64,000 bases of DNA, from IMG/VR virus record IMGVR_UViG_3300028888_000125, positions 5,567 through 69,566 of that record. One strand, written 5' to 3'. Positions 3,861 through 56,408 of this stretch are shown piece after piece. This DNA is from a virus. Lineage: Duplodnaviria; Caudoviricetes. Within the stretch, counting starts at the first letter, position 1, and every line of letters starts with the position of its first letter. The notes under the pieces were generated by a model. The model had not been told where the DNA came from and did not search any database. It was given only the letters and a program-made list of their open reading frames with translations. The position numbers and the translations under genes are program-made.

Positions 3861-5300
3861 TTATGGGTTAACGAAGAACTTCCGATACATGCTGTCGAAA
3901 GTCTCTTCCATTTGAATCTGATTCGGATAGTAGTAATCTCGTGCAAAGTCGTTGGCGCTACGGCGTGTTCGCAGACCAAAGTCCAGATCCATCAGGGAAT
4001 TGATGAATTGCTTGGTGGCATCGTCACGCAGGGTTGGAACTTCAACTTGTCTCCATTCCATTCGGAAACCGTTTGGATCGGACGTAATCCAGGGAAGCGC
4101 CGTGAAGTTTGCGAATTTGTCGAAATACGGGACTCGCCGATGCAACAGTTCCGGAGCACGGCCGTTGGACTTGTTTGGAGACGCGGAGGTGCCGTTCTTC
4201 GACTGATTGATCGTGGGGCAATAGCGTTCTACGAGTCGGTTGAAGTCATAGAGAATGGGGTATTTGTCATACTCAATCACGTTGCAGGTGAACGGAACCG
4301 AGATGTGCTTTGCCGCTTCAATGGAGTAATCACCTTGTTGTTTATTGAATATTCCGCCAATCGGGATGACCGACGGAAAGCACCCTGTACATTTGACATA
4401 GTGACGAATATACGGTGTACCTGGCTCCATAACAAAACTGTAGATGGAGACGGTGTAATTCATCCGAAGGGTGTCGATATCGTCCGCATAGGCGCGCATG
4501 ACGTTATACCGAACATTGTGAATATAGCGTACCCAGTAGTTGATGATAGAGAGAATAGGTCCACCCTGAACATCCTTGAACGTGAGATTCAACGTGTAGT
4601 TTCCTCTAGCCCCCATGACATCGTCCGCATCAACGACAGATTGGGCTTCTCCGAAGTAACCGCCATCCGTCGAGCCAACAGACAATGACAAATCGGGGAA
4701 ACCCGAGATATTCTCATACGAGTTCATCAACGGGACAAAGAAAGCGTTCTGCGGATCGTGGATAGGACAGTTATTGACCAAGTTCCAATAAGGGTTCTCT
4801 TCTGCACGGCCAATCTTGACTTTATGTAGGTTCGTATCCAAAAGAGCCCGAATAGCAAACGCCGTGGAGTTGACATTTGTTGTATCCAGTGGAACCATAG
4901 CTGGATCAGCACGCAAATTCGAAGATTGTAAACAAAGTCTTGGACGGGAGAAGAACGTCAGACCGTGTACCTGGTGGTTTGTCGGAAGTGGACAGGAATG
5001 AAGACGATCGATTGCCGAGAAGAATTCCTGTTGCTGGTTGAAGTATCCGCCCAAACCTTTGCTACGCCAGATAAGGTCTTGAATCATCTCCTGTTGAACT
5101 TTGTTGAGATACTGGTCCGGATTCTCACTTGCGAAACGAATCCGCTGGAGTGTCTTCTCTACGACTTCGGGTTCCTTGAGAATCGTATCCAGACTGGCAG
5201 ACGTGTATTCTTCAGGCACAAATGTTTTGAAATAATCCAGGAGTTCGGAGTCACTGTAGTGTTCTCCTCGGTCCATGAAATTAGGGGTGGATTGGGTCAT
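3861..5300 (-). CDS. Virion structural protein (phiKZ gp88-like baseplate/tube-initiator family)
   Basis: 479 aa ORF with SD GGAGG. Motifs GLTFFSRPRLCL and NYTVSIYSFVME...TGCFP resemble tail-tube-like folds. Synteny with the adjacent wedge gene. Confidence 0.65.
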   Translation of the reverse strand: MTQSTPNFMDRGEHYSDSELLDYFKTFVPEEYTSASLDTILKEPEVVEKTLQRIRFASENPDQYLNKVQQEMIQDLIWRSKGLGGYFNQQQEFFSAIDRLHSCPLPTNHQVHGLTFFSRPRLCLQSSNLRADPAMVPLDTTNVNSTAFAIRALLDTNLHKVKIGRAEENPYWNLVNNCPIHDPQNAFFVPLMNSYENISGFPDLSLSVGSTDGGYFGEAQSVVDADDVMGARGNYTLNLTFKDVQGGPILSIINYWVRYIHNVRYNVMRAYADDIDTLRMNYTVSIYSFVMEPGTPYIRHYVKCTGCFPSVIPIGGIFNKQQGDYSIEAAKHISVPFTCNVIEYDKYPILYDFNRLVERYCPTINQSKNGTSASPNKSNGRAPELLHRRVPYFDKFANFTALPWITSDPNGFRMEWRQVEVPTLRDDATKQFINSLMDLDFGLRTRRSANDFARDYYYPNQIQMEETFDSMYRKFFVNP

Positions 5301-5475
5301 AGACCTCCTCCTTATATACCTTATAGTTATATTTCAAGTCGAGCATAGGATGAAAAACTTCACGTTAGAAAAGATAATATAGCAGGAGGCGGGAAAAGAC
5401 ATCATATGCTTCCCAAGTACTATAGTAATTAAGGGTTAAGACTATTTTTCCATCCTTTGCAAAGGAACCACTCTT

Positions 5476-6696
5476 ATGCCTATTCCATCCAACGAATCTT
5501 CCTTCTTGAGAGCCATCGACAGGCTCTCAGGCGATGCGGGATCAAAGGTGTCGAAAACCACCCTTGGTCTGGCAGATCTTGTGGCTGCCATCCGAGACGC
5601 CAAGCAGGGCATGACATCCTCTCTGACGCAGTTCACGAAGAACATGAACGTGATGGGCCGTGTCTACATCGAAGACTCCATCGCCGCAGATCCGATCGCT
5701 CCCTCTCTGATGAGTTCCTATCACCAGATTTATATAAGCTACATCATGTCGGCTCTCAATCTGGACAGCTACTGCATGAACGGTCGTACGGTCCGCCAGC
5801 TCTACGAAATCGTCCAGACGGAAGACTTCCACAGGGATCCCTCTTCGGTTATCGCGGACTATTTCAGCCACGTCATTAAACCCGTTCTGACGCACGCTAA
5901 CAACGACAACGTCGGCGAAGTCTCGGATGAGTACTACTTCAACTGGCTGAAGACAAAGTCGATCGCCCCCATCAAAGGGTCGTTTGAATCCAACGGCATT
6001 TATCAGCTCGACAACGACGCACAGCGTCTTGTCGCCGGCCGTCTTCTGGAATTCGAACTGCAGGCTCCTGTCACGCAAGGTGACAAAATCGTCAATCAGA
6101 CGAACTTCAAAGCCTACATGTACGTCCAGCTCATTCCGTACATTATGAACAGCGAGACGATGGCGACGTTCCTGCGTGCCAACTACGAGACGAACCTGAA
6201 GATTCGTTGGGACAAACTGCGGACAGGTGAAATCGCCTTCTGGCACGACTTCGTATTTGCATTGGATCTCGTTCGTCAACAGGCCCAGGTCCTGAAGAAC
6301 GATCGTACGGGTGTTGTCTCCGAAATGATGAACATGAACCGCAACAAGCTGTTCCGCTGGTTAGCCGGTCTCATCGACATCATGCCTGAGTCCCACAACT
6401 TGGCAAACGCCATCATGATCATTGACCGCAACACATTCCGTCAGACGACCAATGAGTATCACATTGATTTCCGCAACACGGAAGTGCGTCAGAAGTTCTT
6501 CAACAAGACCTTTACGATGATCATCGGCGTCGTCGACCTGACGTATCAGACCGTAGACATGTACTTCAACGGTATCCAGATGATGGGTACGTACACGTTC
6601 GACATGATCAACAAGGTCGGTACAAAGGGGAAAGACAACTTCAATCTCAAGGAAGTCATGCAGGCTTTCAGCCAGGGCATGACGCCTCGTTTCTAA
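5476..6696 (+). CDS. Major inner-head/virion protein (phiKZ gp89-like)
   Basis: 406 aa with strongly biased codons. GRLLEFEL...YVQLIP motif and S-x-E (SFE) processing-type site. Divergent from the gp87/88-like pair as in phiKZ. Confidence 0.6.
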   Translation: MPIPSNESSFLRAIDRLSGDAGSKVSKTTLGLADLVAAIRDAKQGMTSSLTQFTKNMNVMGRVYIEDSIAADPIAPSLMSSYHQIYISYIMSALNLDSYCMNGRTVRQLYEIVQTEDFHRDPSSVIADYFSHVIKPVLTHANNDNVGEVSDEYYFNWLKTKSIAPIKGSFESNGIYQLDNDAQRLVAGRLLEFELQAPVTQGDKIVNQTNFKAYMYVQLIPYIMNSETMATFLRANYETNLKIRWDKLRTGEIAFWHDFVFALDLVRQQAQVLKNDRTGVVSEMMNMNRNKLFRWLAGLIDIMPESHNLANAIMIIDRNTFRQTTNEYHIDFRNTEVRQKFFNKTFTMIIGVVDLTYQTVDMYFNGIQMMGTYTFDMINKVGTKGKDNFNLKEVMQAFSQGMTPRF

Positions 6697-8715: not shown

Positions 8716-9591
8716 ATGTTCGACATTGACAAAATGATAGAACTATCAACCCTCGAAGCGACGCTCGTGGAAGCCCAGAAAAACGTGTTGTCACAGCTAG
8801 ATGTAGCTTGTGAATTTACACGGAAAGCCAGCAACCACGAACCCGTTTCTCTCGAGACTCTCTACAGTGAGAAGGATGCCCTTCCGCTCGTCCAGAAACA
8901 ATGGGAAGATCTTGAAACCTTCTTCACGACGTTTCGGTCGAGTATGGAAGAGCTTTCTTCCTACGTCGTCAACGAATCGGCAGACATGCGGAAAAACTTG
9001 CTATTGAGTGTCAAGTGGATGCAGGACAACAAAGCGAATCTTGGAAGAGCATCGAGCGTTTCGACGAAACTCGTCTCCCCAAGACTCTTCAACGCCTACA
9101 CCACCAAAATGGAATCTCTCTGCAAGTCCATTACCAGGCGGGAATACAAAGCAATTCCTTCCCGTCTCTCCGACTTGAATTGCACCGTAGCGGACGGAAA
9201 CGTCCAAAGATTACCGGAATACTACGCCTTGGAAAAGACGCAGAACAACCGGTTTCTCACCTCACCTTACAATTGGTCATTCGAGCTCCTAAACAATACG
9301 ACAAATGCTTTTTGTCGTCTCCTCTCCTCCATCGAAAACATGAATCGTGTCTTGGGTGCTTACGCTCAGAACACAACTCAACAGGCACTTCAGAACATCT
9401 ACATCGCCAAGGGTCGTCCCATGATGAAGAAGAATCTGGAACTTCAGCCTATGATTGGAGAAGCCGCACAAAGCCTAGGATTGCTCTACAACGCCTCGAT
9501 TGTAGAACAATACTATGCGGACAATTTGAGTCTGCAGCTCTATAATGCGTATTTGAATCTCAAATCGTACAGTGTGAACAACAAAAATTAG
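8716..9591 (+). CDS. Putative inner-head protein
   Basis: 291 aa, SD AGGAGG. Contains VSLE and TLE motifs like prohead-protease sites. Confidence 0.45.
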   Translation: MFDIDKMIELSTLEATLVEAQKNVLSQLDVACEFTRKASNHEPVSLETLYSEKDALPLVQKQWEDLETFFTTFRSSMEELSSYVVNESADMRKNLLLSVKWMQDNKANLGRASSVSTKLVSPRLFNAYTTKMESLCKSITRREYKAIPSRLSDLNCTVADGNVQRLPEYYALEKTQNNRFLTSPYNWSFELLNNTTNAFCRLLSSIENMNRVLGAYAQNTTQQALQNIYIAKGRPMMKKNLELQPMIGEAAQSLGLLYNASIVEQYYADNLSLQLYNAYLNLKSYSVNNKN

Positions 9592-37159: not shown

Positions 37160-39625
37160 ATGGCAAAAGAGTACGATGAATCTTCGATTCGGACCATGGA
37201 GCCGTTGGAGTACATTCGTCACCGAATGGGACTCTACCTGGACTCCAAGGATGTCTCCGCAGACACCCAGATTCTCAAGGAGTTGATTGATAACTCTTGT
37301 GACGAGTCTCTTGATCCAAAGAAACTCTATCACATTAAAGTCGTTATCTTCACGAACGATAATAAAACGTATCAGGCGGCGGTTATTGACCACGGTCGTG
37401 GTGTTCCGCTTAAGAAGCTGAAAGATGCTTATACGAATACTCAGACCTCTGGTAAGTTCTTCTACGATTACGGTGGAGCGACTACCGGTAGCTACGGTCT
37501 TGGTTCAAAAGTGACTGTCGCGTTGTCGACGCATTTCTTGGCATATTCGAAACGTGCGGATGGTTTTGCCTATTTGAAAGTGAAAGACCAGCACGTGGTG
37601 GACAATAAGGTTCTATCACCTCTCGACAAAGATGATTCGACGATTGGTACGACGGCATTCTACGTTCCCGATCCAACGGTTCTTCCCGAAACACGATCGT
37701 ATTTGTCCGATCCAAATGGTCTGGCCAAGACCATTGACACGTTGAACTTCATGGCGGCTATCAAACCGAACACGATTTTCACGGTCTACAAAGTCAACAC
37801 ACTTCTGGATCAGACATTCTTCGACAAATCTCCGATTGCTCAGTGGAAATATTTCCGTGATGTGACGGGAGAGGTGATCTATCAGAGCCCGTCGGATTTC
37901 AGTGTTGAAAAATACGTGATGACTCGGTTCGGTATTACGTGCCAAAAACCCGAATGGAGTCTGCATCTAAAGAACTCTGTTCGTAAAGAAGCTCAGACCC
38001 TTGAGTACGATATCCATCTCTTCGTATCAGATGGCAAGCGAAAGCAAACGGGACTGCTCGGTTCCGTCAATACCGTTTTGATTCAAACATCCGAATCCTA
38101 TCACTTCTCGGTTCTACGGGAAGTCCTGAAGAAACGGATTGCTCCGTATTTGGATGACACCGATGCTGATCTGATGGCATACTTTAGTACGACGTATGAT
38201 TTTCCCTTCTACGGGCATGTGGTTATCAGTTTCCTGGGTGCTGAGTATGTGACACAGACTAAGTCAATTTTCAAGGATCCTGCATTTGCAAGCATCTACA
38301 AGCACGACTTGAACAAACTGATTGACCAATCCGTTCCTGATGAAGTCTGGGGTCGTCTCTATGCGGCGATTGCAGACGATCTGAACGAACGATTCATCCA
38401 GGCGAACAACCGTGCTTTGAAGTTGACAGCAGGTCTCAAGAACATCGCCTATGACATGTCGAATCCCGACTGTTACACGCCGTGTCGCTCAAAGGATCCA
38501 ACCAAGACGGAACTGTTCATCACAGAAGGAAACTCCGCTGGTAATTCCGTCCGAAAAAATCGAGACGCCAATTACCAGGCCGTTTTCAGATTGCGTGGTA
38601 AGCCGATCAATCCGTTGACGGCATCCGCTGCAGAGCTCAAGGTGAACCGTGTCTATCAGGATCTCGTGCGTCTTATCGGTGTTTCTCCCAGAGATACGGA
38701 TTTGTCCCACATGAACTTCAATCGTATCGGTCTCCTAGCTGACGCTGATCCGGATGGTTACCACATCGTGGCTCTCCTTATCGGAACGCTCATGAAGATC
38801 AATCCGAGAATCATCATGTCAGGCCGAGTCTTCGTGGTCAATCCGCCATTGTACATTATCACGAACAAGTCGAACAATATCTTCATTCGTGATGCGAACG
38901 CTCTTCTGGATATTCGCTCGTCCATCTATCAGCGTATGCTGAAGATATCGGCGTATTATCCGTATACAAAGACATTCCATCAGCTCAACAAGAACGAATA
39001 TCGAGATCTTGTCTATTTCGTCAGACGGTATAGTGCTATCATGATGAATGTCTCGAAGCACCTGAACGTCGAGCCGCTCGTTATTGAAAAGCTGATTGAC
39101 TGCCTGCCCTACATGGAGCCAGGCAATATCAAGACGGAAGCTATCAAGAAGCATCTGAACTTGATGGATTGCCGGTATAACCAGACGTTGAACTCTCTCA
39201 TGCTCATCTTTGATGGTGGCGTTGAGAAGTCTGTTCAGCTCAATCGATTCAAGCCCGAAGTGGAAGCGTATGTCAAGCCCATGCTGGAGCGTTTTGGCTG
39301 GAGGCACTTTGTCTTAATCGCATCGTCCATCCTCTCTGGAGAAATCGACGAACGTCCTGTTTCGTTCATGATGTTGGATGATATTTTCAATGAAATTGAT
39401 CGGGTGTTCCCGATTCATCGATTTAAGGGTCTAGGTGAGTATTCCAACGAACAGCTTGAGAATACTTGTATCAATCCAATTACACGTTCAATATCAGTTG
39501 TGAAGGATATAGGCGATGTTCAATCTATCTATCAATGCCTGGGCGTGGATACGTCATATCGTAAGAGTCTGGTTAAAAAACAGCTACGGGATTTATTCCG
39601 AGAAGTTGATTCTGAAGCCGTCTGA
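37160..39625 (+). CDS. gyrB: Type II topoisomerase B subunit (GyrB/ParE-like) with TOPRIM insertion
   Basis: GHKL motifs ELIDNS.DE, DHGRGVP and GSYGLGS. TOPRIM motifs ITEGNSA, LRGKPIN, DADPDG and RFKGLGE. Confidence 0.9.
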   Translation: MAKEYDESSIRTMEPLEYIRHRMGLYLDSKDVSADTQILKELIDNSCDESLDPKKLYHIKVVIFTNDNKTYQAAVIDHGRGVPLKKLKDAYTNTQTSGKFFYDYGGATTGSYGLGSKVTVALSTHFLAYSKRADGFAYLKVKDQHVVDNKVLSPLDKDDSTIGTTAFYVPDPTVLPETRSYLSDPNGLAKTIDTLNFMAAIKPNTIFTVYKVNTLLDQTFFDKSPIAQWKYFRDVTGEVIYQSPSDFSVEKYVMTRFGITCQKPEWSLHLKNSVRKEAQTLEYDIHLFVSDGKRKQTGLLGSVNTVLIQTSESYHFSVLREVLKKRIAPYLDDTDADLMAYFSTTYDFPFYGHVVISFLGAEYVTQTKSIFKDPAFASIYKHDLNKLIDQSVPDEVWGRLYAAIADDLNERFIQANNRALKLTAGLKNIAYDMSNPDCYTPCRSKDPTKTELFITEGNSAGNSVRKNRDANYQAVFRLRGKPINPLTASAAELKVNRVYQDLVRLIGVSPRDTDLSHMNFNRIGLLADADPDGYHIVALLIGTLMKINPRIIMSGRVFVVNPPLYIITNKSNNIFIRDANALLDIRSSIYQRMLKISAYYPYTKTFHQLNKNEYRDLVYFVRRYSAIMMNVSKHLNVEPLVIEKLIDCLPYMEPGNIKTEAIKKHLNLMDCRYNQTLNSLMLIFDGGVEKSVQLNRFKPEVEAYVKPMLERFGWRHFVLIASSILSGEIDERPVSFMMLDDIFNEIDRVFPIHRFKGLGEYSNEQLENTCINPITRSISVVKDIGDVQSIYQCLGVDTSYRKSLVKKQLRDLFREVDSEAV

Positions 39626-41038: not shown

Positions 41039-41096
41039 CAATTAGACATGTGAGTGTGTAGTGGAGTTAATCCACTGCACACTCGAAAGGAGGATT

Positions 41097-41759
41097 ATGA
41101 ACGTTTGCATTCAAATTCAGGAGAGTAGTTACTTCGAGAAATTCCCGGAAACGGACAAGATTGTCCAGTGTTTCAATCCTGATAACAAGAAGTGTATCAT
41201 TCCACTTTGCAATCTACAATCTTGGCAAAGTATCCGAAACAAGGATGTCCTGCAGGATGTGAAGACGAAAGTTCGTACGATTATTATTCGTGGCAATGTT
41301 AATGCCCTCAATGCACATGACGTGCAGTTGTTTTCTACGAAGCTGATGCATGAGTTCCCGAAGATTATCGACTGGACGACAGAAGGAAAAGGTTGCTTGA
41401 ACAGCTCTTGTCTTTCAGTGCAGCAGTTCAAAGCGGTTCTTTATCACGAGCCGATCATGTGTCTGCGGGAGATTACATATTTGGATTGTCATGTTGCCTA
41501 TGACAATGTGGGAAGAATGGTTGGAACAAAATGGGAGTGGATGGTTCGAGATTTGGCAGACGAGAAGTGGCCTCTTCGTTCCGAAGAAGAGTTGAAAATG
41601 GTTCCGACATCGAACAAGCAGGCACAGGAGGAATATGAGAGAATGCGCGAGTCGTGGCTGATGCGTTTGTTGGACACCTACGGAATACAGTCTCTTCGGA
41701 AGACGTTGGTTGTGTGGCCGGGATGGGAACTATATGCTAAGAAAGTAGATATGAAATAG
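41097..41759 (+). CDS. Hypothetical protein immediately upstream of the cassette array
   Basis: ATG 41097 after AGGAGG; 220 aa; no recognisable recombinase motif. Confidence 0.6.
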   Translation: MNVCIQIQESSYFEKFPETDKIVQCFNPDNKKCIIPLCNLQSWQSIRNKDVLQDVKTKVRTIIIRGNVNALNAHDVQLFSTKLMHEFPKIIDWTTEGKGCLNSSCLSVQQFKAVLYHEPIMCLREITYLDCHVAYDNVGRMVGTKWEWMVRDLADEKWPLRSEEELKMVPTSNKQAQEEYERMRESWLMRLLDTYGIQSLRKTLVVWPGWELYAKKVDMK

Positions 41760-41766
41760 AGGTTAG

Positions 41767-41806
41767 ACGTGGTAGACAGTAATGTCTACCACGTTTTTAT
41801 TTTTTT
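41767..41806 (+). terminator. Intrinsic terminator insulating the cassette array
   Basis: 12-bp stem ACGTGGTAGACA-GTAA-TGTCTACCACGT followed by a long T tract. Confidence 0.85.
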
Positions 41807-42759
41807 GGACGCCATCTACTTTTCTTGATGTAGATATCAAACTATCTCCATTCGGGGTAACCATTATCTTTGTAGTTCCTACACTTCCACTATTACCGGT
41901 AGTTATGGACCTATATACATTAGAGTAGCTGATACATCAGGACATCTGACAACAGGTAATACGGCTGGATCTACATCATCTGGCGTCCCTTGGACGCCAT
42001 CATCAATCCCTTGAGCTGAATGACGATTATATCCTCCTTGTACATTAACGTAAACAACTAGACTTCGTCCATTCGATCCTGTTTCAGCACTACCGGTAGT
42101 ACCTCTTACGCTGTACAGCAAATCACTCAGAGTGGTGGTTTCAGTGTTCGATACAACATAAGTTCCATCGATGGCGTCCTTTCAAGGGACGCCATTTTCT
42201 GTCAGATCTGCGTTTGTTCGATTGATCGTTAGAACACCTAAATTATTTGGTGCATACACTCTCCATTGATTAGTACTACCGGTGGTGGATCTGCTGTACT
42301 TATGTATAGAGTTGTTTCTCTAAGTACAAACGGAGAACACAACAGTCCTATGATACCTAGTTATGATTATGGCGTCCTATGGACGCCAAGATTGGAGACA
42401 GGCCTGACATTATTGTAGGGTATACCTCCAGATGGAGTAATATGATACAGAAAAATAGAACTACCGGTGAGCAATATCAAGGTGCTGGTCGCGTCAAGTA
42501 TGTTAGAACAAATGCGATATATGACTACGGTATACCTTTTACAGATAGTTATGGCGTCCACGGGACGCCATAGAGATAGTTCACAGACGAGAACGTTGCG
42601 TTCTCTCCAGCAGGAGTTGCAGAATGAACGTTAATCTTTAATGGAGCATAATTCTGACTTTGATTACCGGTAGTGATCAATCGACCTGGCGTCTCTATGC
42701 GGCTACAATTAATACATCGATTTCACCGTCGGCACAACCCAAGTCTCTCTATGGCGTCC
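41807..42759. repeat. Array of ten silent in-frame variable cassettes in alternating orientation, bounded by ACCGGT and TGGCGTCC sites
   Basis: ACCGGT at 41895, 42092, 42278, 42463, 42666. TGGCGTCC at 41981, 42172, 42370, 42552, 42752. GGACGCCA at 41807, 41992, 42187, 42381, 42563. All ten ACC-to-GGC distances are multiples of 3 and stop-free. Confidence 0.92.
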
Positions 42760-42824
42760 AGCCCCAAAATCATGATATGATTCCCCTGTCCATCATGTTA
42801 TCTGTACCGTAAGGAGGTACCGTT

Positions 42825-44249
42825 ATGCTGACTCATATGGCACAGATCTCCGAGACCCTGACCCACCTCATCAATCCTATCGCAGAGCAGGCCTGTCGGA
42901 AGATCCTCGACCAGCTCGCCCTTTCTGATGTCGTCGGACCCATGTTCCAGATGGTCTCGGACATTCGAGCTTCCTCCAAGTCCTGGGAAAGGCGTTTTAA
43001 ACCAAAGGTCAAATCCGAAACGTCTTTTAAAGGCGTCATTAAGTACAATCCTGTTTCTACAGGACTCAAGTACGATGTCTCCCTCCCTGGTCAGCACATG
43101 GATGCCCAGCTCATGCGCTCGGACACCTTTGTGACAAATCCTCTCTTCTTTGACCCGACACACAACATTGTTCTCTTCGAACGGTTCCACCCAGCCAACA
43201 TTCAGGTAGACTGTTCCTTGACGTTCATCGATCGCGTGCAAGGTTACGACGCCATTAACCGTTTTCATTCTCTCTTCAATCGCGGAGAGTATTTTCAACT
43301 TCAGGACTTCACGACAAACTATCCGTTACCGCCAGAACATCTTGTCGCTCTCAACAAATTAGCTAAGTTGGCTGGCATTGAAAAAGGCTGTTTTGGACAA
43401 TGGCTAACCGCCTGTTCGAAAGATCGTATCACGTGGGAGGCATCCAAGCGTCTCCGTAATAGGACTTACGAAGTCGTTGTCAAATATGATACGTTTGAGG
43501 CGATGGTTTACATCGACTACACTCCTGAAGCTCTACAGATCGATTCTCCTGGAAAGGCCCCGCAGAATCTTGTGCTGAACTTCCAGTTGACGATTCAGTT
43601 CTCCCGCCCTGACCGAATCTACATGCGCTATCCGATTGTCATTCACAATCAGCTCATCCCTGATTCTCTCATCACGTCGGATCGTAGAGATGCCTACAAT
43701 GACACGTATGACGTTTTGCACCATCGTTTCAAGGGAATTGACGAGGCGCACCAGATGTTCAAGGAGCACGCTCGGAAACCGAAACGTCTTCCCTGGTACG
43801 ATGACTGGCTTGTTCCTCGTTTCTCTTCGTTCCATGAAGAGGGTGCGGAGGCGTTTCTTATCGGAGTCGTCCTGCAGGACACGGAACCTGTCATGACAGG
43901 TAAACTAGAAGACCCGAAACCTCCAGAGTACACGACTGTTGATCTGACATCCGACATTGATAATTATTATCTTTCCACAGATGTCGTCGCTTATTTTGAG
44001 AAGAATCTACGGGATTGCCTAAAGCCAGAAGCTCTCTACAATATAGGGGTTTATATCGGTGACCGTCAGGTATCTCCTAACTGTCTCAAGTTTGACGGAC
44101 ATGTCCTCTCGATTCCTAATTCAATTTTTGACCATGACAAGATCTGTCGTCTCGTCCTTTCTCGCACACCGCCAAGAGCCGAGGGTAATAACCCCTGGTT
44201 CTTTGTGTTAAAATGTGTTATTGAGGTCGGAGACGTTGGACGTAAATAA
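42825..44249 (+). CDS. phiKZ-like virion structural protein (baseplate/tail region)
   Basis: 474 aa, SD AAGGAGG; FSRPDRIYMRYPIVIHNQLIP motif. Confidence 0.55.
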   Translation: MLTHMAQISETLTHLINPIAEQACRKILDQLALSDVVGPMFQMVSDIRASSKSWERRFKPKVKSETSFKGVIKYNPVSTGLKYDVSLPGQHMDAQLMRSDTFVTNPLFFDPTHNIVLFERFHPANIQVDCSLTFIDRVQGYDAINRFHSLFNRGEYFQLQDFTTNYPLPPEHLVALNKLAKLAGIEKGCFGQWLTACSKDRITWEASKRLRNRTYEVVVKYDTFEAMVYIDYTPEALQIDSPGKAPQNLVLNFQLTIQFSRPDRIYMRYPIVIHNQLIPDSLITSDRRDAYNDTYDVLHHRFKGIDEAHQMFKEHARKPKRLPWYDDWLVPRFSSFHEEGAEAFLIGVVLQDTEPVMTGKLEDPKPPEYTTVDLTSDIDNYYLSTDVVAYFEKNLRDCLKPEALYNIGVYIGDRQVSPNCLKFDGHVLSIPNSIFDHDKICRLVLSRTPPRAEGNNPWFFVLKCVIEVGDVGRK

Positions 44250-54663: not shown

Positions 54664-55296
54664 ATGGATACGGAATACGCATACCGAGTAGACCAGCTCT
54701 CTTCAAAGTTTCTGCAGGGAAAACGTCAACAGCACAATGCCGTTGCTAGTCAGATTCTAGCAGTCTTGAAGATCGAGTCTTACAGACGAAACACGATTAC
54801 ACTGTCCGAATTCTCCAAGTATCTTCCTATTTTCGATACGAAACTAGTTAGTAAGATGAGCTACGAGGATTCCGTCTATCTGGGGCAGGAGTGGGCAAGT
54901 CGCATTGATCCGTACGAGGAAGTCCGAATCGTTGAGTACGAGGACTCCAAGGAACCTCTCTTTGTTCTCCCAGCTCTCTACACACGAGTTCCTTCCGTCA
55001 ATATGGCTGGCGCTGCCGGTCTTTATGCTGAGGAGGCTCTTACCAAAAATGTTGCAAACGATTCTCCGATATCGACAGATGCTGAACGATGCACTCGTCG
55101 ATATGCTGACATACTCGATAGGGTTCGACATATTGTTCGGCCGTACTACGAAGCTAGGCAGAATCAATATGCCAAAACGATGGATGATTTGAAAAAGAAA
55201 AATATCCTGTCATCGAATGAAATTCCTACAAAGAAAGAACAGGCGCCCGAACAGGCGGAATCATCCAATCTTGAACTTATCGAAGAACCCTTATGA
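54664..55296 (+). CDS. Conserved hypothetical protein
   Basis: 210 aa, SD GAGGTG. Confidence 0.6.
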   Translation: MDTEYAYRVDQLSSKFLQGKRQQHNAVASQILAVLKIESYRRNTITLSEFSKYLPIFDTKLVSKMSYEDSVYLGQEWASRIDPYEEVRIVEYEDSKEPLFVLPALYTRVPSVNMAGAAGLYAEEALTKNVANDSPISTDAERCTRRYADILDRVRHIVRPYYEARQNQYAKTMDDLKKKNILSSNEIPTKKEQAPEQAESSNLELIEEPL

Positions 55297-56408
55297 GAAA
55301 CAAAGTCGTCTTCATTACGGATATTCATCTGGGACGTGATCCCATCAGTCCATGGCGTGTATTAGAACACTTAGAACGTTATCTATATCCAGTGTTAGCA
55401 GGTGTTGACGAAGATCCGCCCTCTCTTCTCCTTTTCGGGGGAGACTTCTTCGACCGACTTTTGGACTTGAACCAGGATGCGGGTCGTATCGCCGTCACGA
55501 TTGTCGATCACGTTGTAGAATTGGCTGTCAAACACGGATTCTTTGTCCGTGTCCTAGCGGGAACGTTCTCGCACGATCGTTTTCAGAACAAGCTTTTCAA
55601 CTACGGAAAGATACCCGATCTGAAACGGGACGATACTCAGATTGTCCGTGTCTTTGAGGAACGAGGAATTGAGTACATCAAGCCACTCAATCTCCACATC
55701 CTCTATTCACCTGATAATCAGAATGTAGACGACTTGACGGAAGCCGTATTGAAGACACTTTCAGATGCGAATCTCGACCATGCGGATATTCTCGCATCTC
55801 ATACGTATTTCGATCATCTCTACAAGAACCAACGGGAAATCCATCAACCGAGCAAGCAGATTGTTTCCCAAGCAGTCCGTAAGAAATTCACGGTAATCCT
55901 TAACGGTCACATTCATGTCAAGTCTATCGTTCGGAATATCGTGACAGGTGGGTCGTTCGAACGATTCTGTCACGCCGAGGAAGCTCCGAAAGGTTTCCAC
56001 ATTATCACCCTGAATGATGATAAGCTGGAGAAGATCGAGTTCCGTGAGAACTACGATACAGACCTCTTCAATACATACGAAATCACAGATGACAACAATG
56101 ACGCAGTCCTTGATCAAATTGAGGCGGATATCGTCGCTAGCCAGAAGAACGACCGTCCCATTCATATTCGTCTTGTCGGTGAATACGAATCCGCTCGTGT
56201 TTACCTGAAAGAGAAATATCCGACCATCGACGTAGCCGTAAAATCAACGGGCGCCCTGACCAGAGGCGACGATCCGTATGTAGAATCCATTATCGATGAT
56301 TTACCCACGTTGACCCCCGCAAACATCGTATCCTTTATTGTCGATGAAGTCCATCAGAAACTCACCAGGGAAGAAATAGAGGAAATGCTCCATGCCAGTA
56401 CCAAGTAG
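55293..56408 (+). CDS. sbcD: SbcD/Mre11-like metallophosphoesterase nuclease
   Basis: ITDIHLG, FGGDFFD, AGTFSHD, ASHTY and NGHIH motifs. Confidence 0.82.
   Translation: MRNKVVFITDIHLGRDPISPWRVLEHLERYLYPVLAGVDEDPPSLLLFGGDFFDRLLDLNQDAGRIAVTIVDHVVELAVKHGFFVRVLAGTFSHDRFQNKLFNYGKIPDLKRDDTQIVRVFEERGIEYIKPLNLHILYSPDNQNVDDLTEAVLKTLSDANLDHADILASHTYFDHLYKNQREIHQPSKQIVSQAVRKKFTVILNGHIHVKSIVRNIVTGGSFERFCHAEEAPKGFHIITLNDDKLEKIEFRENYDTDLFNTYEITDDNNDAVLDQIEADIVASQKNDRPIHIRLVGEYESARVYLKEKYPTIDVAVKSTGALTRGDDPYVESIIDDLPTLTPANIVSFIVDEVHQKLTREEIEEMLHASTK

Follow-up and report, generated by a model that had tools for sequence, protein, structure and literature searches.

Phages retarget their binding proteins by point mutation, by the hypermutation of diversity-generating retroelements (DGRs) and by inversion of whole fibre ends. 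The variable regions of DGRs have been mapped to the C-terminus of DUF6273, a domain that resembles the C-type lectin domain and whose variable region forms a surface hairpin (PMC10743442, PMC11792537, bioRxiv 10.1101/2024.10.15.618418). The stretch analysed here, referred to as the window, comprises 64,000 nucleotides (bases 5567–69566) of the 69.5-kb virus contig IMGVR_UViG_3300028888_000125, which is rated 26% complete, and holds at 41807–42759 a 953-bp array of ten start-less cassettes arranged in five head-to-head (divergent) pairs. With a probability of roughly 0.8, we consider these cassettes to be one of at least four silent donor libraries for the DUF6273 hairpin of a 775-residue protein, P0010, which is replaced whole at two short DNA words, A (ACCGGT) and B (TGGCGTCC; B' where inverted). 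In the mechanism proposed, each cassette would encode a different form of the C-terminal surface beta-hairpin of this C-type-lectin-like domain, together with the loops that flank it, the P0010 gene would be the single expression site, and a stored cassette would replace the resident one as a whole unit, with ACCGGT (Thr-Gly) as the left joint and TGGCGTCC (Gly-Val) as the right joint. A sequence-specific enzyme would read the two words, the purpose would be to change what the virion protein binds, and the ten cassettes of the window would be used likewise.

Compared with the DGRs that act on DUF6273 or other C-type-lectin-fold proteins (the comparison set being Mtd of Bordetella phage BPP-1, the gut-phage 'tentaclins' and the Faecalibacterium prophage targets), the system shares the domain family and the diversified place, namely the C-terminal surface hairpin between WW(L/T)RSP and GV(x)PA, as well as the location of the variable part at the very end of the gene, followed by a hairpin, and the presumed purpose, a changed ligand specificity of a virion protein. 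It differs in that at least 51 pre-made templates stand in place of one template repeat (TR), that these templates differ at all bases and in length (75–111 nt) and not at adenines only, that they face both ways, and that neither a reverse transcriptase nor Avd is found in the DNA and gene tables seen. With the vlsE/vls system of Borrelia, pilE/pilS of Neisseria and tprK of Treponema pallidum it has in common one expression site served by arrays of donors that lack promoters and start codons, and a donor that may be kept after transfer. Here, however, the carrier is a virus, whole cassettes are exchanged at two fixed words of 6–9 nt whereas the bacterial systems transfer variable segments by way of longer flanking homology, and the donors are unrelated in DNA (30% identity), strictly alternating in orientation and spread over several dispersed arrays. 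The shufflons and invertase switches (R64 Rci/sfx; Gin of phage Mu, Cin of P1 and Min of p15B) likewise combine short crossover words with alternately oriented C-terminal segments of a surface-recognition protein, and one junction described below (L043) lies exactly at one word, as it would there. In contrast to those switches, in which the alternative segments are attached to the expressed gene, the arrays lie at least 50 kb from it in intergenic gaps, no recombinase gene was found nearby, and the cassettes span about 30 codons rather than whole fibre ends. Moreover, an internal segment is replaced and the last eight residues of the protein are kept, so that two boundaries are needed, unlike in shufflons, and both of them matter.

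The cassettes of the window follow a common frame. All ten start with ACC GGT (Thr-Gly), end with GGC GTC (Gly-Val) and contain no stop codon, and the ACC-to-GGC distance of 81–102 nt is a multiple of three in every one of them (chance (1/3)^10, ~2e-5). Reading outward from each ACCGGT gives an open frame on both strands, and the whole array at 41807..42759 has the layout B'-c10-A-c1-B/B'-c9-A-c2-B/B'-c8-A-c3-B/B'-c7-A-c4-B/B'-c6-A-c5-B. On the plus strand lie c1 (41895–41987, TG-SYGPIYIRVADTSGHLTTGNTAGSTSS-GV, in frame and open), c2 (42092–42178, TG-STSYAVQQITQSGGFSVRYNISSID-GV), c3 (42278–42376, TG-GGSAVLMYRVVSLSTNGEHNSPMIPSYDY-GV), c4 (42463–42558, TG-EQYQGAGRVKYVRTNAIYDYGIPFTDSY-GV) and the right-hand end cassette c5 (42666–42758, TG-SDQSTWRLYAATINTSISPSAQPKSLY-GV); on the minus strand lie c6 (42671–42564, TG-NQSQNYAPLKINVHSATPAGENATFSSVNYLY-GV), c7 (42468–42382, TG-SSIFLYHITPSGGIPYNNVRPVSNL-GV), c8 (42283–42188, TG-STNQWRVYAPNNLGVLTINRTNADLTEN-GV), c9 (42097–41993, TG-SAETGSNGRSLVVYVNVQGGYNRHSAQGIDD-GV) and the left-hand end cassette c10 (41900–41808, TG-NSGSVGTTKIMVTPNGDSLISTSRKVD-GV). 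The peptides share the pattern xTG[SGN], a variable-length loop, an alternating hydrophobic strand, xxxG, a polar stretch and x-G-V, much as the original prediction, made from the letters of the window, had described them for this interval. That prediction had also drawn attention to the continuations GVQP and GVQK of the terminal cassettes; these tails do occur, but they are plain read-through and unlike the tail of the recipient protein, GV-LPAFSAIG. A consistent start codon was found in none of the ten, and the cassettes are coding modules, not genes.

The recipient came from a word-index search with the peptide of the L043 junction, which returned two proteins, P0010 (775 aa, on a 269,795-bp contig of ENA analysis ERZ27257205) and P0009 (781 aa, from a related phage); a third, P0160, is a member of the 90% cluster of P0010. 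The three C-termini read ...YWWTRSPY-TG-ASCRHRILSYNGSDEAGNYPNKDY-GV-LPAFSAIG in P0010, ...YWWTRSPY-TG-SDGKMYLYAMRTAEHSYPYTQLYTFVSTN-GV-LPAFSAIG in P0160 and ...YWWTRSPY-TG-STATFNQRACWRVSSVGERAVEYVYMYTS-GV-LPAFSAIG in P0009, with a variable part of 24–29 residues between TG and GV and a constant flank 5' of the cassette that ends ...CCTTACACCGGT. At the DNA level, two loci that carry recipient alleles (L152 and L154) are ~96% identical up to CCCTACACCGGTAGT, unalignable for ~87 nt and identical again from TGGCGTCCTCCCAGC, from where the identity runs on through the downstream non-coding DNA. The alleles differ only between the two words, and identity breaks exactly at ACCGGT and TGGCGTCC. Furthermore, the P0010 cassette ASCRHRILSYNGSDEAGNYPNKDY equals, at the protein level, a cassette of one of the further arrays (L153:4866–4952, minus strand), which is still present in the array in both JGI samples, while the recipient copy is found in ENA and JGI/IMG sources. 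Gene order puts P0010 ~2.0–4.3 kb past the left contig end, at window coordinates of about −7,600 to −9,900; in the orientation of the window it is on the minus strand, and its distance is ~52 kb to the window array and ~10 kb to the tail-tube gene.

The locus L043 of sample 3300032030 connects another array cassette, the second, with the recipient. From one ACCGGT rightwards, L043 is 100% identical over 5.3 kb to the array locus L077 of another sample, whereas on the left side of this ACCGGT it has 58 nt that are wholly unlike L077 and are the recipient constant region, in frame with the cassette. The junction reads KYIRSFQGSARYWWTRSPY-TG-SVSDSYTAYVVTSIGNSNRSRAYQDNH-GVR, and the cassette joined to the recipient in this way is array cassette L077:8085(+). 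The 51-residue junction peptide (19 constant residues plus the cassette) reaches 25.6 bits against DUF6273, the cut-off being 23.5 (E = 1.3e-5), and aligns to profile positions 127–165 of 172. In the same sample, the parental left side of the array next to thyX ends 23 nt before the ACCGGT of the L043 junction, and hence the population contains both types of junction. Whether L043 represents a genuine single crossover or a path of the assembly through a cassette shared by the array and the recipient, it links the second array cassette to the recipient.

Several other searches did not lead to the recipient. A cassette profile run against the six-frame open reading frames (ORFs) of the 69.5-kb contig and ~100 kb of phage loci, with the recipient sought inside the contig, matched the arrays only, its leave-one-out scores being just 2–25 bits. 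The ten-cassette alignment had no match among longer proteins in a word-index search, pattern scans of IMG/VR gave chance matches only, and searches for loci with single proteins found none. Having TACACCGGT and not ACTACCGGT as its left word, the recipient escaped the strict-pattern scan. Within the window, ACTACCGGTAGC at 37481–37492, which matches the consensus of the A word in 11 of 12 positions, was considered as a recipient and rejected: it lies in the gene for the large subunit of topoisomerase II, where it encodes the ATP-lid motif GGATTGSYGLG, GGCGTCC is absent nearby, and the resemblance is probably due to chance.

The recipient belongs to the family that DGRs rewrite. Residues 603–772 of P0010 match DUF6273 (Pfam PF19789) over profile positions 27–169 of 172 with 62.7 bits against the cut-off of 23.5 (E = 5.1e-17), and 240 relatives were gathered when the last 220 residues of P0009 were used as query in an exhaustive HMMER search. 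Across 25 independent aligned proteins, the DUF6273 C-terminus has the consensus WWLRSPxxGxxxxVRxVxxSGxLxxxxAxxxxGVAPAC, followed by the stop; the motif that the original prediction had given is borne out by this consensus and by the three papers cited above. Its central claim, that the cassettes resemble the segment mutated by DGRs, gains support as well. When the 51 cassettes were compared with the 25 homologues by hhalign, a single match was obtained, at family columns 298–322 (P = 0.0017), covering the segment 'a..vr.V..sG.l....A....Gv' that ends on GV, and the ten window cassettes alone were placed identically (P = 0.006); the natural fusion in L043, with its DUF6273 score above the cut-off, points the same way. 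Likewise, the proposal that a ligand-binding loop is diversified by cassette exchange agrees with P0010 being a DUF6273 protein in which everything variable between TG and GV is exchanged as one unit. In the AlphaFold model of the recipient domain (pLDDT 72.8, pTM 0.74), the cassette is predicted to be a beta-hairpin with strands at 190–194 and 200–204, preceded by the WWTRSPY strand and followed by the last strand, LPA, and structure comparison suggests that the modelled domain resembles a solved DUF6273 domain and, after it, TvpA and C-type lectins. A search of the cassette profile against PDB sequences yielded only a strand-turn motif of designed beta-propellers and is uninformative. For the N-terminal 600 residues of P0010 no relative was found in the PDB, and all leads from the Atlas, which were to phage collagen/DUF6273 proteins, stayed below 0.9.

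The two words are as constant as the cassettes are variable. In the array of the window ACCGGT occurs five times and GGCGTCC ten times, five per orientation. The first A word (41892..41903, consensus ACTACCGGTAGT, with ACCGGT invariant) is common to two divergent cassettes, and the ACCGGT of the other four starts at 42092, 42278, 42463 and 42666; the recipient gene reads TACACCGGTAGT at this boundary. The 3' end of the cassette is (A)TGGCGTCC in every case, and the recipient gene reads TCTGGCGTCCTCC there. The first B/B' junction (41981..41999) has the form TGGCGTCC-CTT-GGACGCCA, the others lie at 42172–42194, 42370–42388 and 42552–42570, and lone B half-sites close the array at 41807–41814 and 42752–42759; the spacers from B to B' vary from 1 to 15 nt. 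Neither word shows any synonymous variation among 51 cassettes in four arrays. All ten occurrences of GGCGTCC/GGACGCC in the 64-kb window fall inside the 953-bp array, and outside the arrays, in ~106 kb of phage DNA (window positions 1–64000 and other loci from this phage, ~42 kb in all), none was observed against 9.1 ± 3.0 expected, while ACCGGT was observed 10 times against 20.9 ± 4.3 expected. Both words are thus avoided outside the arrays, as would be expected if an enzyme reads them.

The array of the window is one of several. A strict cassette-pattern scan of metagenomes returned, apart from chance matches, four contigs, drawn from two JGI samples, whose arrays use these two words as well. 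Array L082 (19 cassettes) lies ~7 kb past the right window end, just after a gene for a 416/420-residue protein; array L077 (the same as L043/L151) has 10 cassettes and one degenerate one (11) and adjoins thyX; and array L055 (the same as L153) has 12 cassettes and lies near a topoisomerase IV-like gene. All three are found on the 269,795-bp ENA contig that carries the window genes, giving four arrays with at least 51 cassettes in one phage of ~270 kb, all of them in frame, open and distinct. The interiors of equal-length cassettes share 30% DNA identity (maximum 42%), which is the random level, and adenine is involved in only 62% of their differences, in keeping with the earlier remark that the cassettes differ at all bases and in length, unlike pairs of template and variable repeats. 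It follows that what selection maintains is the pattern of the protein and the two DNA words rather than the sequence that lies between the words. No constant region was found in frame beside any array, all-against-all BLASTP of the flanking proteins revealed no gene common to the array flanks, and no Rfam match was obtained in the window, in the array loci or in the stretch 3' of the recipient.

As to how a cassette reaches the recipient, we lean slightly towards a copying transfer in which the donor is kept over a reciprocal swap, since the same cassette is found both in an array and in the recipient. The alternative that fares best, though still a doubtful one, is conservative site-specific recombination with reciprocal exchange, in which a first crossover at ACCGGT would invert or excise the DNA between recipient and array, a later one at GGCGTCC would restore the order with the two cassettes having traded places, and the old cassette would be banked in the array. 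The architecture fits it well: two short words are invariant, with A palindromic and B in inverted pairs, the cassettes alternate in orientation, and inversion at either word leaves the layout of the array unchanged. In addition, L043 has the structure expected of a one-crossover intermediate (recipient 5' part, A, cassette, rest of the array), the 51 stored cassettes are all distinct, one array contains an 'empty slot' in which an A word abuts a B' word (L153:4858–4871), and both words are avoided elsewhere in the genome. However, a swap should have removed the array copy of the P0010 cassette, which is present in both JGI assemblies, no known recombinase is found in the 69.5-kb contig or in the Pfam gene tables of roughly 75 kb more, and with spacers of such variable length the whole B–B' palindrome is not a fixed site.

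Copy-like transfer is also what a DGR descendant would produce, if a reverse transcriptase encoded elsewhere copied cassette RNA faithfully and the cDNA homed into the variable region, with the GC-rich GGCGTCC as a DGR-like initiation site and ACCGGT as the short 5' homology. The target is the very DUF6273 segment that DGRs rewrite, the 3' boundary is GC-rich, and the recipient gene is followed by a strong hairpin and a structured non-coding stretch of 550 nt (z = −7.4). Nevertheless, this explanation appears improbable: whichever strand is transcribed, every second cassette would be antisense to the transcript, the cassettes are mutually unrelated at all four bases, RVT_1 has no match in the six frames of the 69.5 kb, and no reverse transcriptase is listed within 10 kb of the recipient or in the other gene tables seen. 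Very improbable is a third view, that the arrays are a fossil, or a store seldom drawn upon, and the recipient alleles stem from ordinary recombination between co-infecting relatives, which would suit the identity of the window array between two assemblies and of the L055 and L153 arrays with each other, as well as the lack of an array at the window position in relatives with 35–42% protein identity, but which is at odds with 51 of 51 cassettes being intact and in frame with invariant words, with the purging of the words from the rest of the genome, and with one recipient carrying an array cassette and a second cassette being linked to the recipient in one sample.

The reading of the arrays as donor libraries for P0010 must itself be taken with some caution, since a number of points weigh against it. 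None of the window's own ten cassettes (0 of 10) was seen in the expression site, their use resting on the shared architecture, and the match of P0010 to an array cassette holds at the protein level only. The assemblies that contain the recipient and those that contain the arrays may differ in sample or haplotype and the two copies were not seen on one molecule, so that copying, though somewhat likelier than swapping, is not certain. At L043 the assembler could have resolved a path wrongly, which would still place the cassette in a recipient but would not represent a single crossover. A simple copy model assigns no role to the strict alternation of cassette orientation, and no candidate enzyme was found in the genome parts seen. 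Finally, the profile search that the original prediction had suggested for the ten cassette peptides gave no Pfam family match at E ≤ 10, a result expected for a hypervariable piece of 30 residues. The array feature itself is real.

The search for an enzyme covered the 69.5-kb contig and gene tables for roughly 75 kb more, out of a genome of ~270 kb. The reverse transcriptase noted earlier as lacking from the window is lacking from the 69.5-kb contig too, as RVT_1 had no match in its six frames; neither had the serine and tyrosine recombinase families PF00239 and PF00589, and ORF scans of the contig disclosed no resolvase, invertase, tyrosine or other known recombinase. No recombinase family is listed in the Pfam gene tables of those further 75 kb or so, and neither a reverse transcriptase nor an Avd family occurs among the genes within 10 kb of the recipient in the Pfam tables or in the other gene tables seen. 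The three conserved genes 3' of the recipient match no reverse transcriptase family in Pfam or PHROGs, and a 332-aa gene 3' of the recipient, considered as a reverse transcriptase or recombinase, received no support as such from Pfam, PHROGs, PDB sequences or the Atlas. The window does contain a gene for an SbcD-like nuclease (Metallophos, phrog_100) at 55293–56408, and the ENA contig has an 858-aa SMC_N/Rad50-like gene ~14 kb beyond the right end of the window. Beside arrays full of short palindromes, palindrome-cutting enzymes are of interest, but many large phages have them; these two are general recombination genes and are given no weight here.

Full-text literature searches returned no description of silent cassette libraries in phages. 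We consider it reasonably probable that jumbo phages possess an as yet undescribed dedicated machine that reads the two words and writes pre-made, unrelated beta-hairpins into a C-type-lectin-fold virion protein. If true, this would be a fourth route of retargeting, in which a genomic store of ready-made binding loops is installed as units at two fixed words, and it would be both a counterpart, in viruses, to the antigenic variation of bacteria and, on the scaffold that DGRs use, an alternative to them that involves no mutagenesis. In evolutionary terms it would link DGR targets with cassette-type variation, for ecology it predicts at least 52 binding specificities in one jumbo phage genome, and for enzymology it implies that an enzyme with specificity for words of 6–8 bp exists. 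As a practical use, the natural joints ACCGGT and TGGCGTCC would mark where loops of the scaffold can be swapped with the fold unbroken.

The genome context is that of a large phage. The contig of the window carries split genes for a multisubunit RNA polymerase, a divergent family B DNA polymerase, a class III ribonucleotide reductase, a tail-tube protein and head-tail joining proteins, and by exact protein look-ups the window genes are also present on the 269,795-bp ENA contig. The flanking DNA has no match to cultured phages, and the flanking proteins reach only 22–24% identity to those of Erwinia and Salmonella jumbo phages. Upstream of the array, a hairpin with a T-run (GTGGTAGAC...GTCTACCAC TTTTTATTTTTTT) at 41763..41806 on the plus strand, as read from the sequence, is likely the terminator of the preceding 232-aa gene (41061–41759), and the array begins directly after it. 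Downstream follows, on the same strand, a spacer with AAGGAGG (42760..42824) ahead of the ATG of a 474-aa virion-module gene (42825–44249). With a likely terminator on one side and a ribosome-binding-site spacer on the other, the array occupies an intergenic gap. It is identical in both available assemblies and has no counterpart at this position in relatives with 35–42% protein identity. Two relatives with a 37–42% identical homologue of the 474-aa protein have other genes in its place, namely one for a phiKZ_IP internal head protein (L026:8795–9874) and a small minus-strand ORF (L025:9492–9881), and the window array is thus a lineage-specific insertion.

Some smaller features were recorded around the recipient and the further arrays. 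In the close relative L152, the stretch 3' of the recipient (4963–5512) consists of 550 nt of non-coding DNA packed with perfect GC-rich hairpins, its RNA fold having a z-score of −7.4 against shuffles and no Rfam match; the first hairpin stands a few bases after the stop codon, like the cruciform after DGR variable regions, and a gap of the same length is also found 3' of P0010. Between thyX and the terminal ACCGGT of its array, 1.1 kb without ORFs (L077:8880–10028) opens with a hairpin with a 13-bp stem (8900–8930), and neither an Rfam match nor similarity to the stretch 3' of the recipient was detected for it. At the empty slot in L153, ACCGGT abuts GGACGCC directly, one cassette and its B word being missing, and another cassette of this array carries an extra internal ACCGGT (5271–5276); both may be footprints of the exchange reaction. 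In the array of 19 cassettes, the TAG stop of the gene for the 416/420-residue protein (P0007, phrog_2921) lies inside the terminal ACCGGTAG word (L082:6912–6922), in a frame that differs from the cassette frame. A 120-aa gene in L153 also ends close to a word, 8 nt from the terminal ACCGGT.

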